From Octopus vulgaris (taxonomy: Eukaryota), in NCBI GenBank assembly GCA_951406725.2, contig OX597839.1, forward strand, positions 9,858,001-9,922,000: a stretch of DNA of 64,000 bases, read 5' to 3'. Shown here in pieces: positions 12,312 to 43,372 of the stretch. The first letter of the stretch is position 1, and the number at the start of each line of letters is the position of its first letter. A model generated the notes under the pieces. It had not been told where the DNA came from, searched no databases, and was given only the letters and a program-made list of their open reading frames with translations. Position numbers and translations under genes: made by a program.

Positions 12312-13526
12312 CCTGGACATTGACATGAGTCATGATGCAGTCTTTCATGTGCATATTACTAAGCTGGCAATGAAATGCAGGTGGCTGACCAAATGGATCC
12401 TTAGAACTTTCAGAAAGAATAAGTGAGCAAGAAATCATGATCCTGTGCAGGGTATTTGTCCTAAGCTGTCTTGATTATTGCTCCCAACTGTGGCCACCAC
12501 AAAGTGTGAAATTAATAGTGGAACTTGAAGCATTTCATTTGTGGGAGTGGGTAGTTGGCTGGGCCCAGCAATGCACTTGTCAATGCTTTCATTCTTTGGA
12601 ACACAAAGAAGATAGCATTACTCTTTACTCTTTTACTTGTTTCAGTCATGTGACTGCGGCCATGCTGGAGCACCGCCTTTTAGTCGAGCAAATCGACCCC
12701 AGGACTTATTCTTTGTAAGCCTAGTACTTATTCTATCGGTCTCTTTTGCCGAACCGCTAAGTTACGGGGACGTAAACACACCAGCATCGGTTGTCAAGCG
12801 ATGTTGGGGGGACAAACACAGACACACAAACATATACACACACATATACATATATATACATATATACGACGGCCTTCTTTCAGTTTCCGTCTACCAAATC
12901 CACTAACAAGGCTTTGGTCGGCCCGAGGCTATAGTAGAAGACACTTGCCCAAGGTGCCATGCAGTGGGACTGATCTCGGAACCATGTGGTTGGTAAGCTA
13001 GCTACTTATCACACAGTCATTCCCGCGCCTATAGTGCTAATTAGCTACTATGAAAGACTGGAGAGGTCAAGACATTACTCCCTGGAACAAAGGCAGGAAA
13101 GATACGCAATATACTTCTGGAAGATCCTGAAAGAACTCATCCCAAACTTTGGCACTGAAAGTTATAACAGAGTACCTAAAATACCTTCCTTGCCGTCAAA
13201 ATATAGGATCAGGTACTGCAATAGCGTGGAAGATTAAATATCCTCCTGAAAGAGTTGTGAAACTTAACATGGTGTTGTAGATATCTTCAAAATGAAACTG
13301 GATCTCCTACTGTCAAGGAGTCCCATATGAGCCAACTCTACAGCAGGAAGTGGGAATAAGCGCAACAGCATGAATGTCCCTCATTCACCAAATGCCAACA
13401 ATCAAGTTAGCTACTGTGACAAATGTGTACAAAAGATTGGTTACAAATATCAAAACAAAACAGTTCTCAATCGATGTAAACACGAGAAAAATGTAGAATG
13501 AGAGAAACATTTTTTGACTTGCATAC

Positions 13527-14082
13527 CTTGAGTTTTAGCCGAAGAGTTTGGTATTGTTGAGGACGGAGGAACTGCTGTCTCGGAGTTGGCATTAACTAAG
13601 CTGGATTGCGATTCATTCAATTTAGTATTCCTTTGAAGTGTTGTAGAATCATCGATGTCGCCTGTAACCTTGAGACTTGGTACTCCAGATCCATAGTTGG
13701 AAGTTCCTTTTAAAATACTTTTAGGTTTTGGCCGGAGTGGAGGTGGTACCGTCGGCCTGGGAGTAGAAAACGAATTGATTTTTTTTATGGTGACCATACT
13801 GTCCGCAGATGAAGCATCAGTGGAAGTGGGTAGTTGGCTGGGCCCAGCCATGCCCTCGTCGATACTCTCACTCTTTGGAACATTATAACTACCGCTTCTC
13901 TTGAATAGCTTGGTAGTCTCTTTTTCACTGTGGCGCCTAAACAGCCCTTTCTTTACTTCGTCCAACTTGTTCAGTTCATCTTCGGTCAAAACCGACTGTT
14001 CTTTACCTTTCTCTTTCTTTTTCTGTTCCTTCTTCTCCTTCTCTTTCTTTTTGTCTTTCTCTTTCTTTCGGAAACTGAACAT
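13527..14082 (-). CDS. MYO18A: First coding exon of an unconventional myosin-XVIII-like gene (KE-rich N-terminus)
   Basis: MFSFRKKEKDKKKEKEKKEQKKKEK..LTEDELNKLDEVKKGLFRR resembles the MYO18A N-terminus (MFNLMKKDKDK..KEKKEKKE..AELRSLEEMSLRRGFF). The exon ends at a strong donor CAAG|GTATGC (phase 1). PDZ and motor exons are not in the window. Confidence 0.72.
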
Positions 14083-15600
14083 GATCAGTTGTTAATAATG
14101 TTCAACCTATCACCGAATATCTAAATCCAGAAATGTTAGCGGCCGCAGCCTTCGTCGTTGTTGCGCAAACCCAGTCGGTTGTTACAGTTTAAACAAAGTA
14201 TCTCCAGCGCGTATCAAACGTAATAAAAAAACTGAGACGGGTAGGTTTGAAAGAACCAACCACAAAGTGTCACCGTCCCTTTTGTCACTACTGCTCTCCG
14301 AGTTGCGAGTGTGTTTGTCTGTGATGTGTGTATGTATGCGTGTGACGATTGTGTGTGTGCAAACATGTGTGTAGATTTTAAAAAATTGCTTTGGACCGTC
14401 GTAAGAGGAAAACAGCCGAAGTGATGCGAGAAAAGTATTCTTGCCCGATTTAGGAAAGTTGTCAGTGGTCAGGGAGTTTCTATTCAAACAATTAGAACGC
14501 TAACTTAATATACACGAGATAATGGAAGCATTACTGTCTGCGAACAAAACAATATTGTTCGAATGTTATATATATATAAATATATATATAAACACAAAGT
14601 TAGATAATTTGTCTACGGACGTCAGAAGTACAACAGACAATTACACGTTTATCAAGAAGTACTCATCCAAAAATATAAAAGAAAAAAAAAAGACAATGGG
14701 ACCTTTCGGAGACACTTCATATCAGACGGCCAGTGTTCGCAAGAGATATACAAATAACAAAAATGTTGCAATTCAATCGGTTTGTTCGTAGTTTTAAGTC
14801 ACTGACCAGAAGCACATGTATGATGAGAAAATATATTTCCAGTTGTAAAAAGTGTCCTTTTTTTTTTCAACTGCAGCATTTAACAAAAATCCCTTTCACT
14901 CTCCTTCGTTGAGCTTCGAAGAACAAATCTACAAAACAACAAATGTTAGACTTCCTAAGTTTCACCACCACCATTACCACTACAAAAACTGATAAGACCA
15001 CCTCTACTACCACTACAGCTAAGAAAATAATCACTGCTACTACTACTACTGACACTGCTAATAATACTAATAGTATTACTTATATTACTATTAATACTAC
15101 AACTACCACTATTACAACTACAAAACAGGAGGGAGGGGTTGTACTTTGCTAGGATTGGTGTTGGCGGGGATGATAAGATAAAAGTAATTAGTGTGTCGCG
15201 TGTGTAACAGTTAGTGCGCGCGCCTTCTTACGTTTGGCTATGTGCAAGTGTGTAGGTGGCAGTGGTAGAGGGAGAAAGAGTGCGATAGAGCAGACGGGGA
15301 AAGTGAACCTTTGACGCGGGTAATAGAGATAAGAGAGGTACTGTTGGTTGTGCGCGGCAACGCTTTCTTCTGCTGGTTGTGAAAGGAAACACCAAATAAA
15401 CAAACGTGAGTCTGTGGCGAGGCTAGAATCTGCTTCTTAATCCTATAACATGGCTGACAACTATCCGGGCACCTGCCAAACAAATACTTCCGCATCGTAC
15501 ATCGTAGACGAACTTAGAGAGCTAACCAAGGTGTAACAACTTGGACGAAATGCACATCGATAGAGACGAGATGTTTTTTTTGCCATTCATATCATATCTA
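14083..15600 (-). promoter_or_regulatory. Probable 5'UTR/promoter region of the MYO18-like gene
   Basis: Transposon-free and relatively CpG-rich stretch directly upstream of the ATG, containing an (ACT/ACC)n tract at about 14960-15120. TSS cannot be located. Confidence 0.35.
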
Positions 15601-18589
15601 AGTATGCTTCCATGATTAATATAAACACGAGGTCGGTTCAACAATTGTATATCCAAACTTATTTGTAACTGTTATCAAAAAACACACCGTCACACATCAG
15701 GTTGTATTCATACACCATAGCAAGGGAGGTCACTCTGTCCTCTCACCTGGTAAAGTTACGTCACATTTCGTAACGAGTGGTCAATCACAGCAGACAAATC
15801 GTTCGATTGTAAGGAGAGAGAGAAGAAGGAATGTGTCTGTGTGTCAGCTGTGATCTTGCACTTATCCATACACGTCCCTTTATCAATATTACAGCGAACG
15901 TCAGAAATAGTTAGAAAAAATATATGTTCATTCTTCTGCAACACCTTGGTATTATAACGCCGCAAAGTTGAGTAGCAGCAGTTTGTTTATCTGTCTACTG
16001 AGTCGGTTATATTTCACTGTTTATCTATTCACTAATTATCTGTCTAATCATATGTTTATATATATACATACTATATATTGGCGATTATATTTCTTATATA
16101 TGTATCAGCCGACTCATTTGGCCGTCTCTCTAACTTTATCAAGAGAAACAGTAGAATCCTCGGAAGCCAATGCTCGCACAAACTAATTCTTCACTTTGTA
16201 AACCACACCCTCTCTTCTAATCTGCTTACTGTTCTTCCATTGCCTGTTGGTCTGTTTATCTTTTTTCCTTGGACTCTCTGTATTAACGCAGACGTACAGA
16301 AAGCCAACAGTGCTTTATAGTATCTTCATTTGATATCTCTGACTTCAAATCCATCTGAGTCGATTGTTATTTCCGATGAATAATAAATAAATATTTATGT
16401 TAATCAAGTATTCTCACTGATAGTTTTTAGTGCTCCTCGACATTTTACAATCATATCTATTTCAAACATGGTTATTTATAAAGGTGTGTGTTAGCTGTTG
16501 ATGTTAATACTGTGTATTTGTAGTAAAACAGCAGAATCCGTGGAAACTAGTGTTATTCTGCATCATCGAATGTATGTGTGTGACGACAGTGATATCAAAA
16601 TTAAAATATATCATTCGTGGGCTATATAATGTTTACTCCTGTTGTTAATTCACATCTCTCGTGTATCTCAGAACTGAGATTATCCCTCTTTCACTTTTCC
16701 TTCTCTATGACTTGTACATTAAACACAAACCTGGACAGAGGCCAAAGATGGAGTTTTTTATGTGGTCGCTCGACCTACAATAAATTGCAGCCAAATCCCC
16801 CACCTGCCTACACCATTTTCGAAAGGTAAAGACGCATTGATTAACGTAGTGCTATATATGTAACATACTTTACTGAGAGAAGGATAAAGTGATTATAGCT
16901 GGATCGGTTTTTGATCATAGGTCTGCTGAAGCAAAGCTAACCCGGAGATAAACAAACCACACGAACCTTAGAAAACACCTGCAATGCAGATGACACGACA
17001 AGCCTGTCTGATTCACTAGAGAATTCCTATACTCACCTAGTCACACACAAATGAAGTCACATATCAACTCATGAATATTAATATTTTCTTTTTCCTTTCG
17101 TTCTTCCTGAATCAGTAAAAAAAATGTACCAGTAATATCCTAGTGACCATTATTATAAAAGAAAGAAAATAACAAAATCATCGTTGCCATCATCATCATA
17201 ATGAGAGTGATGGGTTGATAGATGCTTTAGCGTTCTGGACAAAATTCTTTACAAGGATTGTTCCCGCTTTATTTTCACCTTCTGAGTCGATGCCCTGCAG
17301 AAATCAACTTTGCTTTTCATCATTTCAGCGTTGATAGAATATTTAATATACATTGATAAAGTAAAGCTGTTTTGTTTTAATATTCATCGATTTTATGGCT
17401 AACATAAATAATTAACACCTGAGTGAGTTAAAATTTTTAAAAAGTGATTTGGAGTGAATAGAAAAGAAAGTGTTGAAGGACAAAAGGTATTAAGGTATTT
17501 GACAAAAAAGAAAAAAAATTCCATAATTAATTTGGTACACCAATATCCAATATTCCTTTCTTCTATAGGCACAAGGCCTGAAATTTTGGGGCGGTGGGTG
17601 AGTTGATTACATCGACCCCAGTGTTCAATTGGTACTTATTTTATCAACCCCAGAAAGAATGAAAGGCAAAGTCGACCTTGGCGGAATTTGAACTCAGAAT
17701 GTAAAGACAGACGAAATACCTATTTTTTTACTACCCACAAGGGGCTACACACAGAAGGGACAAACGGATTAAGTCGATTACATCGACCCCCAGTGTGTAA
17801 CTGGTACTTAGTTTATCGACCCCGAAAGGATGAAAGGTAAAGTCGACCCGGCGGATTTTGAACTCAGAACTTAACGGCAAATGAAATACCACTAAGCATT
17901 TTGCCTGGTATGCTAATGATTCTGCCAGCTCACCACCTTACACCAATATTTAATATTGCCAGCATTTTTGAAAAGTTTCCAATATTTTATCACTGAATTC
18001 AGATTTTTTTTATTTTTACAGAAACACCCAATAAAATTTTGGCAGCTCAGGTATTCAAATGTTAAATTTCTGCCAGCTCACCACTGAGTGCACACATAGG
18101 ATTGCTTATAGATAATGTGGGAAAACCCTTTGGCTTGGCTCTTCATCACATGTAAAAGATGTGATGACCATTAGATTCATATATTGATATAAGATCCATG
18201 GTTATGAACATGTATAATACGGTATTCAGATTAAAATAATGATATATATTCTACTTTTCATCTGTGGGAATATTCCATATATAGTTATTCTTGTTTTATT
18301 CACATGATTTTTAGTCTATCATGAGTCAAGCAAGAGCTTCAAGGATTCATATATTCAATATGGATTCAAAAAAACTTCCATGCTTCCTGAGATTTGCCAA
18401 CACTACACCTGATTTTCTCCCCTCCGTACACACGCAAGCATGTATATGACTCATACACTGTTCACTTTCCAGACATTTGTATATTACTGCATATGCTTTA
18501 TATGCACTTTTGACAAGATGTGGTGCACCTGAGCACTGTATACAATAATTTCATTATTATTATTATTATTATTTCCTCCTAAAACATGT

Positions 18590-21845: not shown

Positions 21846-22010
21846 GATCCTGCGGTATAGATACACACGTGACTTTGTTTACATTTCTGAAGATAACAAA
21901 AACCCTTTTCTCCCACCCCTAACACAAACCCTAATCCTATCCCTAACCCCCCATATATAAAAAAAAAGCACTTTCTTGAAATGTATCCCGTACTTATACC
22001 GAAGTTACGC
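21846..22010. mobile_element. Half MITE with telomere-like repeats (inverted copy of 25709-25872)
   Basis: GATCCTGCGGTATAG..CCCTAATCCTATCCCTAACCC..CCGAAGTTACGCC is the reverse complement of 25709-25872 and resembles 26001-26164. It truncates a SINE A. Confidence 0.7.
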
Positions 22011-22822
22011 CTGTGCTAGAAAGAACATCCAAATTTCCTTTAAATCACAGACCTTTTCGTGTGAAAATATTTACAAAAATTCCATGTGCGTAGTGCAAAA
22101 AAGAAATTACCCACAGTCGGTCCGAAGGGGACTAAAGTGAAAAAAAAAATTATAAACTTTCAAACATTTTTTTTCTGTTTTCATAAAATAGATACCACCC
22201 ATCCTTTCGAAAGCCGGGCAGAGAAAAAAAATGGGAAAATCCTCAGCAAAACAGAGAAAATTCAACTTATGTAGGTGTCTTGTACCGAAACTCCGCTGAA
22301 TAAGTTATTCTTACATGAAAAACTGGTAAAGGAGTGACAAAAAACTATTTTGATGATATATTCGTATAACCCATGCTAGCATGGGGGTAAAAAGAGAAAA
22401 AAAAAACCAAACGACGAACAAATATAAAGACGTGTGCGTCTGCTAACGTAGCGGGATGTTCTTTACATCAGGTTCTATTTATCAGTTTACACCGTGGAGT
22501 CTCATTGCTTGGCGCCACATTCAATATTATGTTGTCAATACGGAATATAATTCGTGAGAGAAGGACGTTGAATTTGATGGTTAAGAGAGAGTTAACGTTG
22601 TTTCAAAGGGAGATGTTATTAAACAGTGGGAGTTGAAGTATATTTGTAAGTATGTTTTAGTTATTCTTTTAGTAGCAACATACATATATGTGCACGTTTT
22701 TTAGCCTGCCAACCGTGATCGAGCAGACTTTGGTATTTATGTCTGTTTGTGGATCAATTGGAAGTTGAAATATCGACACTGTTCAGGGCAAAGTCCAGAC
22801 AGAGGCACTCCCTCATTTCTTT

Positions 22823-24289
22823 GGTACTTGTCTATTGTCGTGGTCCCGGTTTCGCACACGCGAATTCGCGCGCCAGACGTAGGTACTCGATACTCGAGAT
22901 CCTACGAGGTGACTTGCGCATGCGCAGTGCAGAATTCGCGCATGCGCGTTACCCCCCCTAAAAAAAAAGGTGTTGGATTTCACTAAAAATATATATGTGT
23001 GTGTGTGTATATAACATTTTCAATTTTACACAAAAAAATTACATAGTCGCTTTCCTCGCGGATTTACAGATAAATGAATTAATTACTATTTTACAGAATA
23101 AAATTAATGAATTAATTATATAAATTAAATAATTCTTGAAAATTAATTAATATTAATAATATTTTTTGAACAAAGTAAATAATTTATAAAACTTGGTTAA
23201 TTTTTTTTACACAAACGCGAACGTATATAATTTGTGAAACTTTTTTTTTTTTACAGACGTATATAATTTGGTAAACTTAATGAATTAATTTCTTCTCATC
23301 ATCATCATCGTTTAACGTCCGTTCTCCATGCCAGCATGGGTTGGACGGTTCGACCGGGGATCTGGGAAGCCAGAAGGCTGCACCAGACTCCAGTCTTATC
23401 TGGCAATGTTTCTACAGCTGGATGCCCTTCCTAACGCCAACCACTCCGAGAGTGTAGTGGGTGCTTTTTACATGCCACCCGCACAGGTGCCAGGAGAGGC
23501 TGGCAACGGCCACGGTCGGATTGGTGCCAGTCGAGGCGGCTCTGGCATCGGCCACGATTCGGATAGTGCTTTTTACGTACCACCAGTCCAGGGGTCCTGG
23601 CATTTGCCGGGTGCCACACTTGCCCCAACATGTCTTCGCAAGCAAAGGGGGTTGGCGTGGGTGCCTGTCGTGGGATGAGGTTCGATATCAACTTCGCTTG
23701 CCTCAACAGGTCTTTGTGTATAAATGTATAAATTTTTCGCACTAAATTCTTTCCGTAGAATTTATCAAAAAACGCGCAAAATTATTCCGTAGAATTTATC
23801 AAATTAAAAAACGCAAAATTAATATATTTTTTGAAATTGCAAATTATTTAGAATATAAAACAAATGAAGTTAAATTTTAAAAATAAATGTCGTATACTTA
23901 TACTCTGTAAGGTGCTGTGTTCACACTTCAATTTACTATTTTCTAGAAATGTTGCTTTTCTAATTGAAACAATTTTTCTCAATCTCCATTTAAAAGTCCA
24001 TAATGCCTCTTGAGCCATATCAAAATGAACAACTTTGAATTACGTGGTGGTGGTGTGAGGTTCTAATTTTTTTTTCTGATCTCTCTTTGCCCCCTCTTTA
24101 TCTCAGTTGTTCATTCCGCTAATATTTAGAAAAATTTTCGCGCCCAATTTTTGTTGTCGCATGAAAAGATGAACGATTTAAAATAAATATATCTTAATTG
24201 TAGTGTGAGAAAGTATATATATTCTGATGACAAAATATATTATCTTTCAAAAACATCCCAAATTTATAGACTATATCGTGTAGGTTTAA

Positions 24290-24338
<49 letters not shown>

Positions 24339-25474
24339 AGAATGAAACATCTTTCATCTGTCTCCCCACCACACCTCCATCTAGGGGGGCAAAGAGAGAT
24401 CAGAAAAAAATTAGAACCTCACACCACCACCACCGCCGCCGCGTAATTCAAAGTTGTTCATTTTGATATGTCTCAAGAGGCATTATGGACTTTTAAATGG
24501 AGATTGAGAAAAATTGTTTCAATTAGAAAAGCAACATTTCTAGAAAATAGTAAATTGAAGTGTGAACACAGCACCTTACAGAGTATAAGTATACGACATT
24601 TATTTTTAAAATTTAACTTCATTTGTTTTATATTCTAAATAATTTGCAATTTCAAAAAATATATTAATTTTGCGTTTTTTAATTTGATAAATTCTACGGA
24701 ATAATTTTGCGCGTTTTTTGATAAATTCTACGGAAAGAATTTAGTGCGAAAAATTTATACATTTATACACAAAGACCTGTTGAGGCAAGCGAAGTTGATA
24801 TCGAACCTCATCCCACGACAGGCACCCACGCCAACCCCCTTTGCTTGCGAAGACATGTTGGGGCAAGTGTGGCACCCGGCAAATGCCAGGACCCCTGGAC
24901 TGGTGGTACGTAAAAAGCACTATCCGAATCGTGGCCGATGCCAGAGCCGCCTCGACTGGCACCAATCCGACCGTGGCCGTTGCCAGCCTCTCCTGGCACC
25001 TGTGCGGGTGGCATGTAAAAAGCACCCACTACACTCTCGGAGTGGTTGGCGTTAGGAAGGGCATCCAGCTGTAGAAACATTGCCAGATAAGACTGGAGTC
25101 TGGTGCAGCCTTCTGGCTTCCCAGATCCCCGGTCGAACCGTCCAACCCATGCTGGCATGGAGAACGGACGTTAAACGATGATGATGATGAGAAGAAATTA
25201 ATTCATTAAGTTTACCAAATTATATACGTCTGTAAAAAAAAAAAGTTTCACAAATTATATACGTTCGCGTTTGTGTAAAAAAAATTATTAACCAAGTTTT
25301 ATAAATTATTTACTTTGTTCAAAAAATATTATTAATATTAATTAATTTTCAAGAATTATTTAATTTATATAATTAATTCATTAATTTTATTCTGTAAAAT
25401 AGTAATTAATTCATTTATCTGTAAATCCGCGAGGAAAGCGACTATGTAATTTTTTTGTGTAAAATTGAAAATGT

Positions 25475-25513
<39 letters not shown>

Positions 25514-25690
25514 TTTTAGTGAAATCCAACACCTTTTTTTTTATGGGGGGGTAACGCGCATGCGCGAATTCTGCACTGCGCATGCGCAAGTCACCTCGTA
25601 GGATCTCGAGTATCGAGTACCTACGTCTGGCGCGCGCGCGCGAGAGAATTCGCGTGTGCGAAACCGGGACCACGACAATAGACAAGTACC
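22823..25690. mobile_element. Foldback (MULE/FB-like) DNA transposon, 2.87 kb, non-autonomous
   Basis: Inverted arms 22823-24094 and 24385-25690 with termini GGTAC...GTACC, a 290-bp spacer with (TA)n, and an exact 9-bp TSD CATTTCTTT (22814-22822 and 25691-25699). Confidence 0.9.
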
Positions 25691-25876
25691 CATTTCTTTT
25701 TTCTTTTGGGCGTAACTTCGGTATAAGTACCGGAAGTACCGGATACATTTCAAGAAAGTGGGTTTTTTTTAATATATATATGGGGGGTTAGGGTTAGGGT
25801 TGGGAGAAAAGGGTTTCTGTTATCTTCAGAAATGTAAACAAAGTCACGTGTGTACCTATACCGAAGGATCGCTTCT

Positions 25877-26164
25877 GGCGATCTTTCGGTACGAGATACA
25901 TAGCTGTCACGTGGGTTTATTTACATTTCTGAAGAAAAAGGAAACCGTTCCCCCACCCCTAACCCTACATATATATATATATATATATAAAAAAGAAATT
26001 GGCGTAACTTCGGTATGGGTACCAGAAGTACTGGATACATTTCAAGAAAGTGTTTTTTTAAAATATATATATGGGGGGTTAGGGGTGGGAGAAAAGGGTT
26101 TCTGTTATCTTCAGAAAGGTAAACAAAGCCACTTCCGGTACCCTACGTATACCGAAGGGTCGCC
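25877..26164. mobile_element. MITE with GGCGATC-type TIRs and CCCTAA/TTAGGG-like subterminal repeats
   Basis: GGCGATCTTTCGGTA...TACCGAAGGGTCGCC. Confidence 0.7.
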
Positions 26165-26355
26165 AAGAAATTTTACGGGAAGTGACGATCTTCTTAACAT
26201 GTAAACAAATACACGTGATATAAAGGGTACTCGTATCGAAAGAATGCCCTGTCTCTTTATACACATTGATATGTTTATTGAACACTTTATAATCGTAATG
26301 TATGCCGTGAAAAGTATTTTAATAAAATTTTAATAAAAATAAAAACACAATTTCC

Positions 26356-27361: not shown

Positions 27362-27453
27362 TATCCTGCTTCATTCATTAATTCATTCATTCATTTTTCC
27401 ATTCTATATTATAGAATAAACACTTCTTTTGGTTCTTACTGTTACCTACAGTC

Positions 27454-27592
27454 ATGATTAATTCTGAATCAGAAGATACGGACTTGGTATTTTACGACGA
27501 AAATCTCTGTGGATTGGACCCCTTGTTTCATGTACATTGCAAACTGTTCATTGTTGATGTCCTGAATCTTTCACCTTACCCAACACTTCCAG
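27454..27592 (+). CDS. STN1: STN1 coding exon 1
   Basis: Acceptor CCTACAG|TC ATG. Reads MINSESEDTDLVFYDENLCGLDPLFHVHCKLFIVDVLNLSPYPTLP, compare human LWGLDPVFLAFAKLYIRDIL. Donor CAG|GTACGT. Confidence 0.92.
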
Positions 27593-28035
27593 GTACGTGA
27601 TACACCCTATATTTATTTCTGTATTACCCACAAGGGGTTAAACATAGAGGGGACAAACAAGGACAGACAAAGGGATTAAGTCGATTACATCGACCCCAGC
27701 GCGTAACTGGTACTTAATTTATCGACCCTGAAAGGATGAAAGGCAAAGTCGACCTAGGCGGAGTTTGAACTCAGAACGTGCTAATGGTTCTGCCAGCTCA
27801 CCGCCTTAACACCCTATATTACAACCATTTCACTCTTTGTTTTGTAACCAGCACTTCCAAGTGGGTGACATACCCTAATTCATTTCAATTCTTCACTTTA
27901 TAGTTTTTGTTGGTAATGTTGTTTAGATGCTAATCCAGCAGACCTATGATCAAAGACGTTCCAACCATAACATCTCTTTTAATCAGACATAATATATCCA
28001 GTGTATCCTTTTCTTAAGACGTCAAGTTTTAGTGA

Positions 28036-28608
28036 GAAGTTAAGTTAATTTTTTGGCTCAAAAAACAAAAGCAAGGCCATGTAGGGGGACAGGGAGGGTG
28101 GTCATACAAAGAGTTCAGGCCATTTCTGGTCAAGAGAGACTTTGAACCGAGTGATCATCGGCATCTTCACTATCTCGTTCGGCAGCTTATTCCACGGATC
28201 CGCAACCCGGACGGAGAAAGCCCCTCTCCTTCGATTGAGGTGAAATCATCGTAGATAGAGCTTTTCGGAGTGACCCCGCAGCCAACGCTCTGGAGCAGGA
28301 GTGAAGAGCAGCTCTTTCAAGAGGTTACACTTTCCGCTTATGATGTTGTGAGCGAGAATGAGATCACCACGGCGTTATCGTTTTTCTAATGAATAAAGGT
28401 CGAGTGTCTTCAGCCTTTCTTCATAAGACAAATGCTTGAGACCAAGAACCATGCGGGTAGCCAGCTTCTGGATTCTTTCGAGATGATGTATGTCTTTGAG
28501 GAGATAAGGAGAAGAAGGCTTGAATTCCGTACTCCAATATGGGTCTCACGAGCGTGACATAGAGCGGTAGGAATATGGCTGCTGTGAGCATTCCGAATGA
28601 CCGTCGAT
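28036..28608 (-). mobile_element. CR1-like LINE 3' fragment
   Basis: Minus frame RIQKLATRMVLGLKHLSYEERLKTLDLYSLEK. Related pieces at 31783-32180 and 830-975. Confidence 0.8.
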
Positions 28609-28945
28609 GTTTGTCTACTATTTCTAGCAGGTTGAGTAACCCTGTTTAAGCCTCTCTTCTCATGCTATCCATTTAATTACTTTCCCCAGATGGAGTCTTT
28701 ATGGCCTAACCTCAGCAATGGTTGCAAAACTATCTCTAACGTGGCTTAGTCATATATTACAATTTAATCTCATTCCTTCCATGTCACTGCTCTCCATTCC
28801 AACAGCTCTGTCATAGTACTGCACTACTATGTAGTCCACTCCCTCTTCTCCATTCCTACAGCCCTGTCATAGAACCATACTATGTGGTCCTTGCCCTCTT
28901 CTATTTCACTTATTTTTACATCCCTCTCATAGTACTTTGCTACTA

Positions 28946-29559
28946 TTTTGACCGACAGATTTAGAAAATATTTTTTTGTAACCAAACACTTTCAAACTTC
29001 GGACACTGGTAGAATGTGTCATATAAAACATCTTTTACTCTTAGTATTTTTGAGAAAAACTTATATTTACAAAGTTATTTCACGTTAAAGTTCTTGTATT
29101 TTGGTAATTTCGACCAATCAATGACATGTATTCAGCTGAATAAAATTACTGCTGTTGTTTGTCAACAAGAACTTCTGGCGGTGTATATTTCGTTTGTCAC
29201 AGTTATTTACGACAACCCTAAAACCCTAATCCTAACCCCCTAACCCTGAAACCTTAAAACCAGTACAAACGCACAAACGATGTCAAATAACAATGACAAA
29301 CAAAAAATACACCGTCGATAATTATTGTTGACAAACAACGGCAGTAATTTTATTCAGCTGAATACACGCCATTGATTGGTTGAAGTTACCGAAATATGAG
29401 AACTTTAAGGTGAAATTACTTTGTAAATATAAGTTTTTCTCAAAAATGCTAACAGTAAAAGGTGTTTTATATGACACATTCTACCAGTGTCCGAAGTTGG
29501 AAAGTGTTTAGTTACAAAAAAATAATTTTTTAAATCTGTAGGTCAAAAGGTAAAGATCC
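28946..29559. mobile_element. Palindromic MITE (~260-bp arms) with telomere-like centre
   Basis: Arms are reverse-complementary. Right end ..AAAGATCC is followed by CTATTTTA, matching the left flank CTATTTT. Centre reads AACCCTAAAACCCTAATCCTAACCCCCTAACCCTG. Confidence 0.8.
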
Positions 29560-29768
29560 CTATTTTAACTGTTTTGTATCACACTTCATGATGGCTAATT
29601 GAATGAATAGACAGGTAGTTAGATAGATGGTCTGACAGATTGTCAAGCAGAGAGTCACTGACAAACAGAGGCAGACACAGATGCAAACAAACAGAAATAG
29701 ATGAACTGTTAAACAGATACTGAGGTACAATAAAATGACTGAAAAATATCTTAAACTTTTATTTACAG

Positions 29769-29864
29769 GAGCTTATTGTTATAAAAACCATCCTATATTC
29801 AAAGTTGATATCATGGGAATAATTGCAAGTTGCCAAGAAAAACAAAAAAACTTTATACTCGGAG
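29769..29864 (+). CDS. STN1: STN1 coding exon 2
   Basis: TTTACAG| GAYCYKNHPIFKVDIMGIIASCQEKQKNFILG |GTAAAC; compare human GVFLYNGHPIKQVDVLG. Confidence 0.92.
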
Positions 29865-30878
29865 GTAAACTATTTATTCTGTAATTATTTGACACTTCTT
29901 TGACTTTACTATCAGACATAAAAGATCTATTTTGGTCATGTTCTGTCCTTGGGCCCAAATGCACTCATGTCAGTGCTGCGTAAACGCACTCCTGCCTGTG
30001 CAGTTTGGATGCTCATGATGGTGGCATGAAAAATGTACCCAGCACACTCTGTAAAGTGGTTGGTGATCAGAAGGGCATCCAGCAATAGAAACTATGCCAA
30101 AACACAGCTAGAGTCTGGATAGCTCCCTGGTTGGCCAGTTCCGGTCAAACCGTCCACTCCATGCCAGTATGGAAAGCAGACATTAAACAATGATGATAAT
30201 GATTTATTATTTGGTATTACTCTTTTATTTGTTTCAGTCATTTGACTGCAGCCATGCTCCAGCTTTTAGTCAAGCAAATCGACCCCAGGACTTATTCTTT
30301 GTAAGCCTAGTACTTATTCTATCGGTCTCTTTTGCCAAACCACTAAGTTACAGGGACGTGAACACTCCAGCATCAGTTGTCAAGCGATGTTGGGGGGACA
30401 AACACACACATATATACATATATAGGACGGGCTTATTTCAGTTTCCGTCTACCAAATCTACTCACAAGGCTTTGGTTGGCCCGAGGTTATAGTGGAAGAC
30501 ACTTGCCCAAGGTGCCACACAGTGGGACTGAACCCGGAACCATGTGGTTGGTAAGCAAGCTACTTACCACACAGCCACTCCTGCGAAATTTTTGTTGCAC
30601 CAACTGCAATTTCTTTTTATTTAAACAAATGAGATGCTGTGGAATAGCATCAATGATTAGGTCACAGTTGATGCAACAACAATTTTAACATCAAATAATA
30701 AAAGTAAATTAATAGTTATCGCCATACTAATATGGCAATCTTATAAATATAAGACTAAAGCTGTCGATGATTAGCTCCAAGAGGCCATCGCCTCAAGCTA
30801 GCTATTTGACACACAATCTGCGTCCATTATAGACTTTCGAACAGTCGAGGTCAGCCGCTTCATCCTGCTAGTCAGACA

Positions 30879-30921
30879 GCTGCAGACGCGTTTCAGGGTA
30901 GTTGCCCTTTATCAATGCAGC
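30879..30921 (-). ncRNA. Minimal hammerhead relic in a Penelope-like fragment
   Basis: Minus strand reads GCTGCA-TTGATAA-AGGG-CAACTA-CCCT-GAAAC-GC-GTC-TGCAGC. All stems are perfect and the GUC triplet is present, but the core CTGATGA has two transitions. Confidence 0.55.
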
Positions 30922-31234
30922 GTAGTCAGACCCAGCAGGTGTCGCTACTGACTGTCCCTGTTCGAAGAATCTATTTACCTAGTTTTAGTGGAATACATCC
31001 ACTTGTTTTCAATAATAGAAATATTAAAATTACTAAGACTTAGTAATTTTAATAATTTCTATTAATAAAAGTAAAGTTAACAGTCTATATGTGTTTTTGA
31101 ATGGCTAAGTTACAGGAACGTAAACACTCCACGCTATTTGTTTTAGTTTCAACATACTGTCTCAGATCAAATTACTTGCTTGGGAAGTACACCTCTGCAA
31201 TTTATTTGTATTTTTGTTTAAACATTTAATATAG

Positions 31235-31294
31235 TTGATGATGGTACTGGTATAATATCTTGCTGTGTTTGGAAGCAAAAAGTGGAAACTGGAG
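31235..31294 (+). CDS. STN1: STN1 coding exon 3
   Basis: VDDGTGIISCCVWK, the OB-fold signature (human VDDSTGVINCICWK). Flanked by ATAG| and |GTAAGT. Confidence 0.93.
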
Positions 31295-32678
31295 GTAAGT
31301 TGGTTTGTTTGCAACTTTGATTTTAACATTTTTAGCAGTTACAGCTCCTATATGTAGGTCTGCCTCTGTTTCTGGCTAACTGAGATATAGTTAACTGTTG
31401 CCCTTGTTTAGGCTTTTAGGCTTGGGTCAACCCTGATCAAGCAGACATAGGGAAAAAAGATATTCCAGCCATGACCATCCTGTTTTTGTTTTGTGTTTTC
31501 CTGTGTGTAAGGAACCCAGGAACACATAATCTAACCTATCCTTTCCTAAGATATAAGGTATGATTTAAGGAAGTTTGGTTGTTATTTCTAGCAGTGATCC
31601 AATTACCTACTCTTTGTTAGTGGTAGTGTTAGCTGAGCTTAAAACCTGATGGAGAGGAATAGTGGATGGTGTGAATGAAAGGTTTGATAAACTAATTAAC
31701 CCATAATACACTTTATGAAGCTGAAATCTTCACAAATGACTCCAATCACTCCATCTTTCTTTTACACATGTCACTCTGCTTTTAATTTAATTTCTATTGG
31801 CTCAAAAAACAAAAGCAAGGCCATGTAGGGGGACAGGGAGGGTGTTCATGCAAAGAGTTCAGGCCATTTCTGGTCAAGAGAGACTTTGAATTGAGCGGTC
31901 GTCGGCATCTTCACTATCTCATCCGGCAGCTTATTCCACAGATCTGCAACCCGGACGGAGAAAGCCCCTCTCCTTCGATTGAGATGAAATCGTCGTAGAT
32001 AGAGCTTTTCGGAATGACCCCGCAGCCGACGCTCTGGAGCAGGAGTGAAGAACAGCTCTTTGGAGAGGTTACACTTTCCGCTTATGATGTTGTGAGTGAG
32101 AATGAGATCACAACGGCGTCATTGTTTTTCGAGAGAATAAAGGTCGAGTGTCTTCAGCCTTTCTTCATAAGACAAATGCTTTAGTTAACACTCTTGTTAC
32201 ACAACACTAAATACTTGGCTATAAATCATTTTAACTCTAACCTTACTAAAGTACAACTTGAGAGAGACATTTGGGAGACTTAGTTTTGTCTCTTGTACAA
32301 TCCAATGTGAAGTTCAGCAATATGTTCGGCGCTACAGGGTGGTGTATTGGCAGAATTTCTAGAAGGCGGTGAGCTGGCAGAGACGTTAGCACGCCAGGCG
32401 ATATGCTTAGTGGTATTTCATCTGCCGCTACATTCTGAGTTCAAATTCCGCCGAGGTCGACTTTGCCTCTCATCCTTTCGGGGTTGATTAAATAAGTACC
32501 AGTTACGCACTGGGGGTCAATATAATCGACTTAATCCGTTTGTTTGTCCCATCTGTGTTTAGCCCCTTGTGGGCAATAAAGAAATAAGAATTTCTAAAGC
32601 ATTAGATGAACTGCCTTCCTGGGTTTGAACTCTGGATGCTACCATATCAAGTAAACAAGGTTTATCTTATATTTTCAG

Positions 32679-32825
32679 ACAATGACTTCAGGAGTTTTCT
32701 TCCAGAAAGTTTACGCTTGAAAACACATACGTTGCATCCAGAGTTTAGTCTTGGAGAAATGGTTCACATTCGAGGAAAAATAAAGTCTTACAAAGGTGTC
32801 AATGAAATAATGATAAACTACATCA
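32679..32825 (+). CDS. STN1: STN1 coding exon 4
   Basis: TTTTCAG| DNDFRSF..FSLGEMVHIRGKIKSYKGVNEIMINYI (human IEIGDTIRVRGSIRTYREEREI). Donor |GTATCCTTTT. Confidence 0.92.
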
Positions 32826-33897
32826 GTATCCTTTTCCAAAAGTCTTTGAATTTTCTTCTTTTACTGTTTGCAGATCTTTTTGGTCTGAACAACAGTTTTT
32901 AACATAATTTCTAGGTAACTAAAAAATTTTAAACTTCGTATACTGGTAGAATGTGTTTATAAAACATTTTTTCTCTTGGCTTTATTGAGAAAATTCTATA
33001 GTTTGTAAGATATTTGCTGTGTTTTTTTTCAATTTATGCAATTTCAACCAATCGATGACATCCATTGAGATAAAAAACATTCTGTGTTGTATGAATATGT
33101 CCCTCGTTTAAGAAACAGATTGGATTTATTTACATTTGTGAAGAAAAAAAGATACCCTAACTAACCCTAACCCTAAAACAGATTGAAATGCAATAGATCG
33201 ATACTAGGGTCATAATTATGGGTGACAATTTCATATGACACCACTAGAAAAAACTGCCGTTCGAACCGAAGAGATCCCTGTTTGCAGTCATTCAGATTTT
33301 TTTTTTTTTAGTATTGATCTCTTCACTACATATTTAGTTTGGTAATTACTGAATGGATAAATTACTCGTTAATAGAGAAGAGACACAATTTGATGCACTG
33401 GTCTATTCTAACACAAGCATACACACACACATTTGTCTATCTGCCTAATGGATATTGGAGGAAAAGAAGAGTACATTGATGTTAATGCAGAAAAAGAGTA
33501 CATGGGGATTAGGGCATGAGACATAAGTTACATTAACATTGGGGGCAGGCGCATAGGGTATGATGTAAGGAGTGGCCAGTTTAGGTAGACTGACTTTAGT
33601 GGGTGTCGCGGTACATGGATATTAGTTGGGTATTACAATACTGGGAGATTAGTAGGAAAGTAAAGTACAGGTACATTAGGTGTAGATTTACAGGGTATAT
33701 ATGGATGTGGACAGTTATGTTACACTGGTGGGGTACTAAGTACATAGACATGAAGGGTAAATTAGATGTGTATTAGGAGACTTAGACATTAGGTGTCAGT
33801 TTGGGGAAAAGGGTATGCTAGGTTATAGTTTCTTCTGTATTATGTTACATTTAGTTTTGAAAAACTGAAGAAAGTTCCTTAACTCTTGTCCCACCAG
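32826..33897 (+). other. U12-type (minor spliceosome) GT-AG intron
   Basis: 5' site GTATCCTTTT. Branch point TTCCTTAAC at 33875-33883, 14 nt before the end of the intron. No long polypyrimidine tract. Reading frame is preserved across it. Confidence 0.9.
32872..33277. mobile_element. MITE (GGATC-type TIR, 8-9-bp TSD) with CCCTAA repeats
   Basis: AGATCTTTTTGGTCTGAAC...GTTCGAACCGAAGAGATCC, flanked by CTGTTTGC(A) on both sides. Second copy at 63496-63929. Confidence 0.85.
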
Positions 33898-34049
33898 CAC
33901 CAGTATCCAGTGTATCTGCTGAACTCACTCATATGTTACAGAGTCCATATTTGTACAAGACTGTCTATGATCAAACATTAGTATTGGCATCTGAAGTTCA
34001 GAAGTTGCAGCTGGAAGCAAATGAGATAAGAACCGGATTGAAACCATTG
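33898..34049 (+). CDS. STN1: STN1 coding exon 5
   Basis: PVSSVSAELTHMLQSPYLYKTVYDQ (human QIARMLELPTIYRKVYDQ). Donor TTG|GTAACC. Confidence 0.88.
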
Positions 34050-35247
34050 GTAACCATTTAGATGTTATTTATGTGTAGAATGACTTCTGCACAAACTGGA
34101 ATGGTTTAGAACTGTGGTACCCAAAGTGGGTGATACTGACCCCCTGGGGAGTCAGGTGGTAAGATCCTTCAGGGTGTTGAAGAAAATTGGAGTGATGAAT
34201 GGCAATGCCCCACTTCTATTTTTCAATGGTACACTCAAGTTTTGAAATACTGTGTAAAGATCAATCTGAAAAAAGTTGCCCTTCCTAATGCCAACCACTC
34301 CAAGAGTGTAGTGGGTGCTTTTACGTGCCACCGGCACGAGGGCCAGTTAGGCGGTACTGGCAACAGCCACGCTCAAATGGTGCATTTTATGTGCCACCTG
34401 CACAGGAGCCAGTCTAGCGGCTCTGGCAACGCCCTCGCTTGAATGTTTTTTCATGTGCCTCCAGCACAAGTGCCAATAAGGCAATGCAGGTAACAATCAC
34501 ACTCGAAAGGTGCTTTTTATGTGCCACTGGTACGGAAGCCAGCTTGTTGCTCTGGCAACGATCACACTCGGATGGTACTCTTAGTGCTCCACTAGCACGG
34601 ATGCCAGTCATCGAATTTGGTTTCAATTTCGATTTCACTTGCCTCAACAGGTCTTCGCAAGCAAAGTTTAGTGACCAATGAAGGAATGGTACGCATTATA
34701 TAAGTGGGCTGGTTACACCCCTGGCATAGGCCACGAGGTTATGGTCTCACTTGGCTTGACGAGTCTTCTCAAGCACAGCATATTTCCAAAGGTCCTGGTC
34801 ACTAGTCATTGCCTCGGTGAGGCCTAATGTTCAAAGGTCATGCTTCACCACCTTGTCCCAGGTCTACCTCTTCCACAGATTCCCTCAACCACTAGGGTGT
34901 GGCACTTTTTCACACAGCTACCCACAGCCATTCTCGCCACATGGCCATACCAGTGCAGTCATTTCTCTTGCACACTACATCTGATGCTTCTTAGGTCCAA
35001 CTTTTCTTGCACACTGACATAGTTTATCTAGAACTACATTATCTAATGTGTCTGTCCCCATTTTCATGGTAAAGTGTTATTTGAAGGATATTTTACTGTT
35101 ATTTTTAGCAGGGCAGGAGACTATATTAGAGTTTCTAGTGTTGGTTCAACAGAAACAATGGAACAAAGTGATTACCATCACACATCAAAATAGAAACTCC
35201 TTTATTATGTATTGTGTTAAGTGTTGTTGTTGTTGTTGTTATTCCAG

Positions 35248-35355
35248 GAGAATGTTATGAGAGAACTACTGGCCAAGATAACAGTGTTTAATATTGAAAC
35301 TATCAAAGAACATGACATTATGCACAGAATCCAAGATAGTCTTGGTGTTCATGAG
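35248..35355 (+). CDS. STN1: STN1 coding exon 6
   Basis: TTCCAG| ENVMRELLAKITVFNIETIKEHDIMHRIQDSLGVHE |GTATGC; phase 0-0. Confidence 0.8.
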
Positions 35356-35645
35356 GTATGCCATAATCATCTTCACCATCATCCTTATCACTATCACCAT
35401 CACCATCATTATCATCATCATCATCTTTGCCATCATTGTTTTTACATCTGTTTTTTTCCATGCTGATATCGCTTGGATGAGACTTACTGAGAGAATCTTT
35501 TAGTCATTTGACTGTGGCCATACTGGAGCACCACTTTTAGTCGAGCAAATCAACCCCGCTGAACTGCTATGTGACAGGGACGTAAACACATCAGCATCGG
35601 TTGTCAAGCAATGTTGGGGGGACAAGTACAGACACACAAACATAT

Positions 35646-35686
<41 letters not shown>

Positions 35687-36788
35687 ATGGGCTTCTTTCA
35701 GTTTCCATGTGCCAAATCCACTCACAAGGCTTTGGTCGGCCCGAAGCTATAGTAGAAGACACTTGCCCAAGGTGCCACGCTATGGGACTGAACCCGGAAC
35801 CATGTGGTTTGTAGGCAAGCTACTTACCACACAGCCACTCCTGCACCTATATAACCTTTCTTCATTAACCCTCATTGTTTACCAACTAATGTTCTAATGT
35901 CAGGACGATTTTGACTGAGGGCTGGCAAACTAGATGGTTGCACCAGGCTCCAATCTTGATCTGGCAGAGTTTCTACAGCTGGATGCCCTTCCTAACACCC
36001 ACCAGCTGTAGAAACTCTGCCAGATCAAGATTGGAGCCTGGTGCAGCCATCTGGTTCCAGACTCCAATCTTGATCTGGCAGGATTGGCCAGATCGATAAT
36101 GGTTTCAAATTTTGGCACAAGGTCACCAATGGGGAGGGGTAAGTTGTTTACATTGACTTCAGTGTGCAACTGGTTCTTATTTTAACGACTCCAAAAAGAT
36201 GAAAGGCTAAGTCAACCGTAGCAGAATTTGAACTCAGAATGTAAAGACAGCTAAAATACCGCTAAGCATTTTGTCCAGTGTGAATGAGAAGTGTTAACTA
36301 ATTACTTTTATGTTACCAAATTTAATTCTTTAACCCTTTAGTGTTCAGATTATTCTGTCAAATGTGATGTTTGTTTATTTAAAATGGTTTGAATTAATCA
36401 TGCGTTATCTTGTAGTTTAGAGATTTCAGTGATGTGATTTTTTAGTTTTTGAATGACATTGTAGGGCTGAGGCGAGAGGCGAGATCTGGTCAGTTTCAGT
36501 ATAAAACAGGTTAAATATTTTGGCCGGATATGGCCGGTTTGAATGCTAAACGGTTAAAGTAAGTTATTTTGTTGTCTCTTTCTATGACCTTTTCTCTTTG
36601 CTTTCAAGATTGGTGGGAGGATTTTTTCATGTCAGAGACCTGGTTTCAGGAAAGCTTGCACCATTCCTCGCTTATGATGACAGTGTTAAACCAGATAATA
36701 AAGTTAACCATTCGAGGAATACAAAATCAGTCATAATTCTGCTCTGCCTAACACTGTATGGATGTTGCTCTTTTATTGTTTTTTCCAG

Positions 36789-36890
36789 TCCTTGGAATAC
36801 GTGGAGAGTATGTTGAACAAAGTCTTGAAACAAATGGAACGCCAAGGCTTAATATGTTCTCGTTCTGATCTTGCAAATTCAAAATATGAG
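36789..36890 (+). CDS. STN1: STN1 coding exon 7
   Basis: TTTTCCAG| SLEYVESMLNKVLKQMERQGLICSRSDLANSKYE |GTATGT; compare human IQLLQEKGLVFQK (winged helix). Confidence 0.85.
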
Positions 36891-38375
36891 GTATGTTTCA
36901 TCATTCTACTCTAAGTGGCTGCTGCTTCTTTTTCTGACAAGTGAGACTTTATCTTCATTTTTCATTTATTTATATTTTCTTTAGATTCTCCTTTGTTCAA
37001 CTGTTACCACCAATAACCCAGACAACTGCAATGAAAGATCTTCCTTTAAACCAAGATTTATTATTCTTTGGTTTTTCAGTGTTCTTAGATTCTATACTAC
37101 CAGTGATATGTATGTTGTTAGTAAATTTCACAAGAAATGATGTTTCTAATCATTATAATTCCCAAATTCCCAGGTCTTGACCACCGTACTTATAATAATC
37201 GTGGCAGCTAGAAGGACAGACATACTGCAGCAGAGTTTGTACCTAAATAGGTCAGCTCCTGTCCAGTTGAACTTCGCCTGACATGGCTGAGGTCGTAGGT
37301 CAAAGGGAGATGACCAATCACTTTTTGACAGGACAAAAAAAAACTTTTTTCGCACCTGTTGATCATGGTGGTTTGGACGACCTAGAACTCTTAGATTTGG
37401 TTTCGAATCTAGGCTTGGAGAAGGAAGTGTCAATTTTTACATATTTATCATCCTACAGAGATCCATTGACTTTATGGTTCTGTGTATCATCATCATCATC
37501 ATTTAATGCCCATCTTCCATGCTGGTATGATTTGGTTGATTCAACAGGATCCAGTGAGTGGGAGGGCTGCATTCTGCTCAAATGTCTGCTTTGACATTTT
37601 ACAGAGTAATTTTTCTTTTTTGTGTCGTATCAATGAACTGGTGAGGTCACCATGTAACTCACACGACTAAGGTCCTCCTTAAACTGAGTGTGGCTATAGT
37701 AGAGAGGGGAGTGACTTTATGCTACAGGTTGAAAAGTGAAAGCAGTGGTTCCCAAAGTGGATGGAACTACCCCATGGGGCTGGTGGAAAGATCCAGGAGG
37801 GTGTTGAAGAAAAGTGAGGTGATAATTGGGTGGTCAAAAGGGGGCAATGGATGTAAAAACAACTAAATAATGGATTAAGTCGATTATATCGACCCCAGTG
37901 CGTAACTGGTACTTATTTAATCGACCCTGAAAGGATGAAAGGCAAAGTCGACCTCAGCGGAATTTGAACTCAGAATGTAATGGCAGACAAAATACCACTA
38001 AGCATTTCGCCCAGTGTGCTAACGTTTCTGCCAGCTCGCCGGCTTTGGTTGGCCCAGGGCTATAGTAGAAGACACTTGCCCAAGATGCCATGCAGTGGGA
38101 CTGACTATGTGGTTGGGAAGCAAACTTCTTTACTACATAGCCACACCTGCTTCCTTCTGTTTATTGTCGCATGTTTGCATTACATAAATTCTGCATCACC
38201 TCAGCTCTGTCTTCATTGAGTTATTTAGATGAGATGAAGTTACCAAATTGTTTCTGCAAAAGATATTGTTTTGTCTGGAAAATTTTTCTCAACACTGACT
38301 GGAGTGGAGTCCTGTCCTATGGATACTTATAATTCTCATCTAGTGTATAATACAACATTGACTAAAGTGTGGGCC

Positions 38376-40140
38376 CAGTCCCATGGATATTTGAAATTCT
38401 CATTTAATGTATAACACAAAATCAACTAGAGTGAGGGCCCAGTCCTATGAATATTTGAAATTCTCATTTAATGTATAACACAAAATCAACTAGAGTGAGG
38501 GCCCAGTCCTATGAATATTTGAAATTCTCATTTAATGTATAACACAAAATCAACTAGAGTGAGGGCCCAGTCCTATGAATATTTGAAATTCTCATTTAAT
38601 GTATAACACAAAATCAACTAGAGTGAGGGCCCAGTCCTATGAATATTTGAAATTCTCATTTAATGTATAACACAAAATCAACTAGAGTGAGGGCCCAGTC
38701 CTATGAATATTTGAAATTCTCATTTAATGTATAACACAAAATCAACTAGAGTGAGGGCCCAGTCCCATGGATATTTGAAATTCTCATTTAATGTATAACA
38801 CAAAATCAACTAGAGTGAGGGCCTAGTCCTATGAATATTTGAAATTCTCATTTAATGTATAACACAAAATCAACTAGAGTGAGGGAGTCCTATGAATATT
38901 TGAAATTCTCATTTAATGTATAACACAAAATCAACTAGAGTGAGGGCCCAGTCCTATGAATATTTGAAATTCTCATTTAATGTATAACACAAAATCAACT
39001 AGAGTGAGGGCCCAGTCCCATGGATATTTGAAATTCTCATTTAATGTATAACACAAAATCAACTAGAGTGAGGGCCCAGTCCCATGAATATTTGAAATTC
39101 TCATTTAATGTATAACACAAAATCAACTAGAGTGAGGGCCCAGTCCTATGAATATTTGAAATTCTCATTTAATGTATAACACAAAATCAACTAGAGTGAG
39201 GGCCCAGTCCTATGAATATTTGAAATTCTCATTTAATGTATAACACAAAATCAACTAGAGTGAGGGCCCAGTCCTATGAATATTTGAAATTCTCATTTAA
39301 TGTATAACACAAAATCAACTAGAGTGAGGGCCCAGTCCCATGGATATTTGAAATTCTCATTTAATGTATAACACAAAATCAACTAGAGTGAGGGCCTAGT
39401 CCTATGAATATTTGAAATTCTCATTTAATGTATAACACAAAATCAACTAGAGTGAGGGCCCAGTCCTATGAATATTTGAAATTCTCATTTAATGTATAAC
39501 ACAAAATCAACTAGAGTGAGGGCCCAGTCCTATGAATATTTGAAATTCTCATTTAATGTATAACACAAAATCAACTAGAGTGAGGGCCCAGTCCAATGGA
39601 TATTTGAAATTCTCATTTAATGTATAACACAAAATCAACTAGAGTGAGGGCCCAGTCCCATGGATATTTGAAATTCTCATTTAATGTATAACACAAAATC
39701 AACTAGAGTGAGGGCCCAGTCCTATGAATATTTGAAATTCTCATTTAATGTATAACACAAAATCAACTAGAGTGAGGGCCCAGTCCTATGAATATTTGAA
39801 ATTCTCATTTAATGTATAACACAAAATCAACTAGAGTGAGGGCCCAGTCCTATGAATATTTGAAATTCTCATTTAATGTATAACACAAAATCAACTAGAG
39901 TGAGGGCCCAGTCCTATGAATATTTGAAATTCTCATTTAATGTATAACACAAAATCAACTAGAGTGAGGGCCCAGTCCCATGGATATTTGAAATTCTCAT
40001 TTAATGTATAACACAAAATCAACTAGAGTGAGGGCCCAGTCCCATGGATATTTGAAATTCTCATTTAATGTATAACACAAAATCAACTAGAGTGAGGGCC
40101 TAGTCCTATGGATATTTGAAATTCTTATCTAAAGTATAAT
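38376..40140. repeat. 64-bp minisatellite, 27 near-identical units, in a STN1 intron
   Basis: Unit CATTTAATGTATAACACAAAATCAACTAGAGTGAGGGCCCAGTCCTATGAATATTTGAAATTCT with period 64 (one unit has a 3-bp deletion). Degenerate units extend to about 38295 and 40380. Confidence 0.97.
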
Positions 40141-40447
40141 ACATCAGTGTCTTGAGTGAGAGCCCTATGACATGGAGACTTGTGGTTCTCGTCCAGTGTA
40201 CAATACAATAGTGACTAGAATGAGTGCCCAGTCCCATGAAATACTTGGAATTCTCATCTAGAGTATAATACTATCTTGACTGCAGTGTTAGCCTAGTTAT
40301 AAGCATAATATTAATTTTCATCTACTGCATAATTCAAAATCAATAAGAGTAAAGGCCCTGTCCTATAGATACTTGCGGTTCATGAAAGAAATAGATTTCA
40401 TATTGGTTGACTTTGTGAATTAATTTTGATATTTTTGCCTCTTGCAG

Positions 40448-40523
40448 TCATTATTGAACCCCAAAGCTGATCTGAAATTATTAATTATGGATATTATCAA
40501 GAAAGAAGTATATAATGGCAATG
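40448..40523 (+). CDS. STN1: STN1 coding exon 8
   Basis: CTTGCAG| SLLNPKADLKLLIMDIIKKEVYNGN |GTAAGT; compare human DKDLHRKIHRIIQQD. Confidence 0.85.

Positions 40524-43369: not shown

Positions 43370-43372
<3 letters not shown>

Follow-up and report, generated by a model that had tools for sequence, protein, structure and literature searches.

A 2868-bp foldback transposon lies at positions 22823-25690 of the window, the 64-kb stretch of Octopus vulgaris DNA that was analysed. We consider it quite probable that this element is a non-autonomous Merlin (IS1016-related) derivative with two downstream ends, formed by arm copying. The evidence comes from its boundaries, from a decayed transposase remnant that is mirrored in the two arms, and from a retroposon insert that is mirrored along with the remnant.

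Boundaries and arms of the element

The element begins with GGTAC at 22823 and ends with GTACC at 25690. It is flanked by a 9-bp target-site duplication (TSD), CATTTCTTT, with its left copy at 22814-22822 (+) and its right copy at 25691-25699 (+). The duplication is exact and cannot be extended on either side, and the termini and TSD given in the first-pass annotation are both present. On the + strand of the 64-kb window the 9-mer CATTTCTTT is found at these two places and nowhere else, and the chance that two random 9-mers of the window match is 5.8e-5. The reading of the element as a DNA transposon flanked by a genuine target-site duplication is supported.

The left arm (22823-24094, -) is 1272 bp long and repeats the downstream half of the element in inverted orientation. 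The right arm (24385-25690, +) is 1306 bp long and contains, in order, a transposase remnant, a 3' non-coding region, a retroposon insert, a subterminal region and the terminus. A unique spacer of 290 bp (24095-24384) with an (AT)22 run at 24292-24336 separates the two, and would represent sequence upstream of the transposase gene. The arm-to-arm alignment has 1268 matched columns, one substitution (24015/24471) and seven indels, among them indels of 9, 10 and 14 bp, and all seven fall within or beside homopolymers or di- or trinucleotide runs. The earlier description of near-identical arms differing mainly at microsatellites is borne out by this count. The arms are the longest inverted pair in the 64-kb window; the only repeats within them are microsatellites and one 19-bp repeat, with no modular tandem repeats. 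The terminal segment at 22823-22975 (+) is GC-rich (55% GC), starts with GG and carries short repeated palindromes; it is likely to be the transposase-binding TIR.

No terminus-like 20-mer was found inside the element, and no second copy of its ends was found within the 64-kb window. BLAST of the flanks against the window gave no empty-site copy among the matches listed. An Rfam search over 22500-26300 returned only sub-threshold miRNA-like matches, on AT/AC repeats.

The transposase remnant and the nested insert

In a six-frame translation, the inner arm contains a short peptide that we took to resemble the motif following the zinc ribbon of Merlin transposases. Short exact strings were compared at the protein level, by looking them up in the available text of the protein appendix to PMC8101967 (Lopes et al. 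2021) and then reading the matches by eye; the motifs were picked after the sequence had been seen. Three motifs occur in the family order within 120 bp and are mirrored in both arms. In the right arm, motif 1 (24469-24498, +; family residues about 30-38) carries one extra codon relative to the family's upstream motif and lies in a different frame from motif 2 (24507-24566, +; family residues about 70-89), which by eye is identical to XP_029648038.1 at 18 of 20 residues. Its core of 17 residues at 24516-24566 is identical at 16 positions to both KOF84207.1 and XP_029648038.1, again by eye, with a rough chance figure of 1e-9 after the search space is allowed for. Motif 3 (24573-24590, +) agrees exactly, over six residues, with the aberrant C-terminal tail of the Merlin protein KOF80585.1, and is read as sequence from beyond the transposase ORF. 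The left copy of the remnant occupies 23920-24017 (-) and keeps the family Trp codon at 24017-24015, and the mirror of motif 3, corresponding to sequence downstream of the ORF, is at 23896-23913 (-).

The strings themselves are specific to Octopus within the portion of the PMC8101967 Merlin appendix that was available. NSKLKC falls in Octopus proteins of one family in all nine of its places, WLKRH in Octopus proteins in six of six and YGLLN in three of three, and the single place of TLQSIS is the tail of the Octopus protein KOF80585.1. Degenerate patterns for motifs 1 and 2 have matches in the window only in the two arms. When windows were shuffled, the patterns for motifs 1, 2 and 3 were matched in 0 of 100, 0 of 60 and 1 of 100, respectively.

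About 30 codons, including those for the zinc-binding cysteines, are deleted between motifs 1 and 2, and the whole DDE core is deleted ahead of motif 3. Searches with the remnant gave nothing significant in Pfam (the sole row, DUF4371 at E=0.11, was below the cut-off), no match in NCBIfam, no match at E<=10 in a word-indexed protein search that produced one candidate, and no match at E<=0.001 with phmmer using 38 residues; the best ESM Atlas score, 0.85, was uninformative. An intact DDE_Tnp_IS1595 domain was found in none of the 38 stop-free segments, and the element is accordingly classed as a non-autonomous derivative. The catalytic motifs are apparently kept, as judged by eye, in family proteins such as XP_029646117.1 and XP_029633801.1.

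Merlin elements are characterized by 5'-GG ends and TSDs of 8-9 bp in the text of PMC8101967 available to us. The element has TIRs starting 5'-GG, an exact 9-bp TSD and the three collinear transposase motifs. With the Octopus family of XP_029648038.1, XP_029657075.1, XP_029646117.1 and KOF84207.1, as far as that source presents it, the element has in common the 5'-GG ends, the 9-bp TSD, the transposase motifs and apparently the downstream piece. It differs from these Merlin elements in being non-autonomous, in lacking the DDE core, and in having arms that include coding remnants and a retroposon. The arms are also long, at 1.27-1.31 kb, compared with Merlin TIRs of 24-462 bp in the main text of PMC8101967. 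The longest Repbase Merlin TIRs stated in the part of that paper at hand are 1000 bp, for Merlin-1_DR and Merlin-N5_DR of zebrafish; many of the entries there are NA and none is from Octopus.

The first-pass annotation had placed the element with Mutator/FB. That label gives way to Merlin in view of the Merlin remnants in both arms, the GG ends, and the lack of a MULE domain, which was found at E<=0.1 in none of the 38 stop-free segments by a search that short decayed remnants can escape. In combining long TIRs with a TSD of about 9 bp, the element is also compatible with Mutator/Foldback elements as described in the portion of PMC3169594 consulted; the likeness extends to Foldback/Mutator elements such as Tm1, which share the long inverted arms and the 9-bp TSD. 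Recently active Mutator families are moreover listed for O. vulgaris in the accessible part of PMC13282606. A Mutator/Foldback element could have captured a Merlin piece and mirrored it later, but we regard this as very unlikely: the MULE domain is missing from every segment, the arms contain microsatellites and not the modular tandem repeats of FB-type or Tm1-type arms (PMC3169594, in the part seen), and the ends and TSD already match the superfamily of the enclosed remnant. Nor does the element, at 2868 bp, have the size of a MITE, which is usually <600 bp according to the section of PMC3573991 that we consulted.

Merlin sequences number 191 in O. bimaculoides. For O. vulgaris, the 2026 annotation, in the part of PMC13282606 consulted, gives 18 Merlin families, two of them recently active, and for recently active Merlin 11 insertions covering 28,998 bp, with a mean of 2.64 kb; this mean is compatible with the element's size but does not identify the element. 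The element's termini are absent from the portion of the PMC13282606 supplement that was searched. The consensus library of that study is deposited elsewhere and may already include the element's family.

The retroposon insert is 421 bp long in each arm, at 23296-23716 (-) in the left and at 24770-25190 (+), with a (GAT)n tail at its end, in the right. The two copies are exact reverse complements at 421 of 421 bases. The first-pass annotation had reported an identical SINE of about 420 bp, named SINE C, at mirror positions in the two arms; the identity and the mirror position stand, while the left start was one base off and the SINE label is doubtful. Relatives of the insert occur at 15 other loci in the window, with six matches of at least 150 bp that are 64-89% identical. 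At least two of these 15, at 34277-35006 (-) and 132-1883 (+), come after LINE ORF remnants. In the former, 35006-34762 encodes the C-terminus of an RT-type protein (tblastn E=2e-19 against the LINE remnant at 2137-2457), and the UTR following the end of this ORF can be aligned with the insert as far as the latter's 5' edge at 24772. The relative ending at 1883 is preceded by an RVT_1 remnant at 574-816 (E=3.7e-5, below the curated cut-off).

With LINE ORF remnants ahead of two of its relatives in the window, the insert is more likely a LINE 3' UTR than a SINE. Its family shows the position of such a UTR, after the stop of an RT-protein C-terminus, and a simple-repeat tail, and is not independent of a LINE ORF, as a SINE family would be. 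The insert is probably the 3' UTR of a 5'-truncated LINE, which we take from its motifs to be RTE-like. It could alternatively be a SINE that shares the tail of this LINE. ARAGORN predicted no tRNA in the window and Rfam found no tRNA head in 22500-26300, although decayed heads escape these searches and this copy lacks its 5' part. A TSD was looked for beside the insert without success; the best candidates were AT-rich, 5-8 bp long and non-adjacent. The motifs of the insert are absent from the consulted part of the SINE supplement of PMC5786205 except for a 10-base string with three occurrences, and the passages shown there belong to an unrelated SINE.

The LINE remnants at 132-1883 (+), 2137-2460 (+) and 34277-35006 (-) have as their 3' UTR the family that had been labelled SINE C. 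Other 'SINE C' calls in the O. vulgaris genome may likewise be truncated LINE tails.

Origin of the mirrored arms

The transposase remnant points outward in each arm, from the centre to the terminus, and beyond it come downstream sequence, the insert and finally the end. Since the remnant reads outward on both sides, both arms represent the ancestral downstream end, which has taken the place of the upstream end. One arm is a copy of the other. This agrees with the earlier proposal of a single retrotransposition followed by rebuilding of one arm, to which the mirroring of the transposase remnant along with the insert now adds.

The structure could have arisen in four steps. First, a Merlin element lost its zinc-ribbon codons and whole DDE core, as the motifs read by eye show. 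A LINE would then have integrated once, 5'-truncated, between the transposase gene and the right terminus. In the third step, repair would have started in one terminal repeat with the opposite arm as template, and copying would have run about 1.27 kb inward, past the insert and across the remnant of the transposase, until synthesis switched back to the original strand. The likeliest route for this step would be break repair with a template switch. Its outcome would have been the exchange of the upstream end for a mirror of the downstream end, leaving the 290-bp spacer. In the fourth step, of which the TSD is the record, the element was inserted at its present site by Merlin transposase supplied in trans; the intact ends and the TSD point to a recent insertion of this kind. 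In this single copy, arm copying may have preceded or followed the insertion. By default we read the foldback structure as an incidental by-product and not as a selected function.

The arms were last identical about 0.11 million years ago (interval 0.003-0.61), as calculated from one change in 1269 sites and 0.0036 substitutions per site per million years, taken as a per-lineage rate. The single substitution arose in the right arm, because the left arm keeps the family Trp codon, which is the ancestral state. An ungapped one-frame alignment of 24465-24566 would make the right arm the holder of the ancestral base; this was rejected, as motif 1 fits much better in a second frame. Two further candidates were set aside. 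A younger conversion tract confined to the insert had been considered for the indel-free middle of the arms, but that stretch contains only one of the ten simple-repeat runs of the left arm. Transposase similarity running three residues past the right-arm edge into the spacer, which would have marked the left arm as the copy, was too weak.

The main rival to arm copying is a head-to-head dimer whose inner ends were lost. Sister-chromatid (alternative) transposition or adjacent insertion would have joined a pair of copies of one deleted Merlin, and the pair would have had its inner ends deleted and moved as one unit using the two outer downstream ends. This would yield the same anatomy of two downstream ends, near identity and one TSD, and alternative transposition has been tied to spontaneous Ac/Ds silencing in a preprint (bioRxiv 10.1101/2020.01.07.897926) whose accessible text has 'inverted duplication' 17 times. 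The dimer requires one further event that deletes both upstream ends, and no terminus-like sequence is left inside the element; we consider this origin unlikely, though it deserves more weight than any other alternative.

An assembly artefact, in which a fold-back read duplicated one arm, has in its favour the near identity of the arms, the several differences that are homopolymer lengths, and the partly Nanopore-based public O. vulgaris reference, from which the window may come. Such an artefact would not end precisely at the GG ends or make a 9-bp TSD; it would not leave a unique 290-bp spacer or indels of 9, 10 and 14 bp, nor would it give a substitution at which one arm keeps the family residue. 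We judge it highly improbable. The abundance of the insert family, at 15 other loci in 64 kb, could also suggest two independent retrotranspositions into mirror positions of long arms that already existed. The truncation point, the 421 bases and the site are identical in both arms, and the mirrored transposase remnant contradicts this account and removes it as an alternative; its probability is negligible. Arm copying remains the preferred reading.

The region contains other inverted structures. A second inverted duplication at 52446-55166 has 617-bp arms (592 matches, 21 substitutions and one indel) and a 1.49-kb spacer, and no TSD was found at it. Its two arms share a truncated repeat head and a piece of ORF, for which Pfam gave no match and which presumably resembles a LINE RT motif. 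At the rate used for the element's arms, this duplication is about 5 million years old. Since repeat fragments are present in both of its arms, mirrored retroposon pieces are not rare in the window. Near-perfect palindromes at 28946-29548 (83%) and 43370-43808 (93%), with no TSD detected, are possibly old MITE-like elements. A palindromic repeat with CCCTAA-like runs (25709-26163) starts 10 bp past the right TSD of the foldback element and is partly tandem-duplicated; its relatives are at 21846-22011, 33121-33176 and 63749-63813. A PIF1-like helicase remnant at 57031-57348 (+; Pfam E=1e-20) is, together with 56460-56717, probably a decayed Helitron.

Setting at STN1, predicted hairpin RNA and significance

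The coding exons of STN1 lie downstream of the element at 27415-41405 (+) and match O. vulgaris proteins. A query with the exon at 32678-32827 found five STN1 proteins among 44 candidates, all five from Octopus. The O. vulgaris protein P0003 corresponds exactly, junction residues aside, to the window exons from 27454 to 41405, whereas the O. sinensis and O. bimaculoides proteins differ; by this identity we take O. vulgaris as the host. At 16052-16177 (+) there is a putative upstream exon, which matches its counterpart in isoform X2 of O. sinensis STN1 at 95%. At its donor position (16163-16175) it reads GC, not GT, so that the donor is non-canonical or the two species differ here; a canonical acceptor is present at 27413-27414. 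The element lies between this putative exon, with its non-canonical donor, and the first coding exon. Given the match of the O. sinensis exon to 16052-16177, the element is likely to be inside an 11-kb first intron of STN1.

Two other features were observed in this part of the window. A minisatellite at 38314-40143, in an STN1 intron, consists of 28.6 copies of a 64-bp unit with 97% matches. An open frame at 13450-14091 (-), oriented away from STN1, encodes 213 residues with a Lys/Glu-rich start, and we assume that it resembles the first coding exon of myosin XVIII.

An RNA across the element is predicted to fold with 1268 arm-to-arm pairs, and its longest unbroken helix is 762 bp. The duplex of about 1.27 kb proposed earlier for a transcribed element is in line with this prediction. 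In squid tissues other than the nervous system, heavy A-to-I editing is directed at repeats within introns and 3' UTRs, according to the part of PMC9068888 available to us. It is plausible that the element's RNA is edited, provided that the region is transcribed, and the 762-bp unbroken helix would be an easy test site for editing or for small-RNA production.

The maize Mu killer, as described in the consulted portion of PMC3440606, resembles the element: it is an inverted duplication that takes in a stretch of transposase gene together with one of the terminal regions, and its hairpin RNA is proposed to come from host-gene read-through. The element shares with it the inverted duplication of transposon sequence. 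Mu killer differs in being a proven silencer that duplicates TIRA and mudrA, whereas the element duplicates the downstream end and has only about 100 coding bases left. We regard as a long shot the idea that a recently active Merlin family spreads with two downstream ends and the 1.27-kb hairpin of Merlin and LINE 3' UTR, yielding hyper-edited RNA or small RNAs against two transposon classes from transcribed introns, as a mobile animal counterpart of Mu killer.

The process of copying is known, with the 1000-bp Merlin TIRs and the recruitment of sequence into Galileo TIRs as precedents. In Drosophila mojavensis, the TIRs of '2RT' copies of Galileo reached 1.1-1.26 kb through the recruitment of internal sequence (PMC3573991, in the sections available). 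These copies are also non-autonomous, and sequence from downstream of the transposase is among what they took up; repair or conversion is the suggested mechanism, a process of the same kind as the route favoured for the element. Galileo differs in belonging to the P superfamily and having 7-bp TSDs, and its recruited part is non-coding in the text of PMC3573991 consulted, compared with the transposase codons and nested retroposon recruited here. Among the papers listed by our literature searches, which did not take in the O. vulgaris consensus library, Repbase reports or most subscription journals, there was no direct precedent for a Merlin foldback that has its coding remnants mirrored or for a retroposon present in each of the two TIRs.

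On the sequence evidence, the element would be one curious insertion that arose from known processes. It is a clean record of the origin of a foldback transposon, readable at a single locus because polarity comes from the mirrored remnant, while the mirrored retroposon serves as a tag of the tract that was copied. Long arms plus a 9-bp TSD are shown by this case to be no proof of Mutator. The structure suggests that Merlin transposase may be able to accept two downstream ends, and with it Merlin joins the superfamilies that produce foldback forms.
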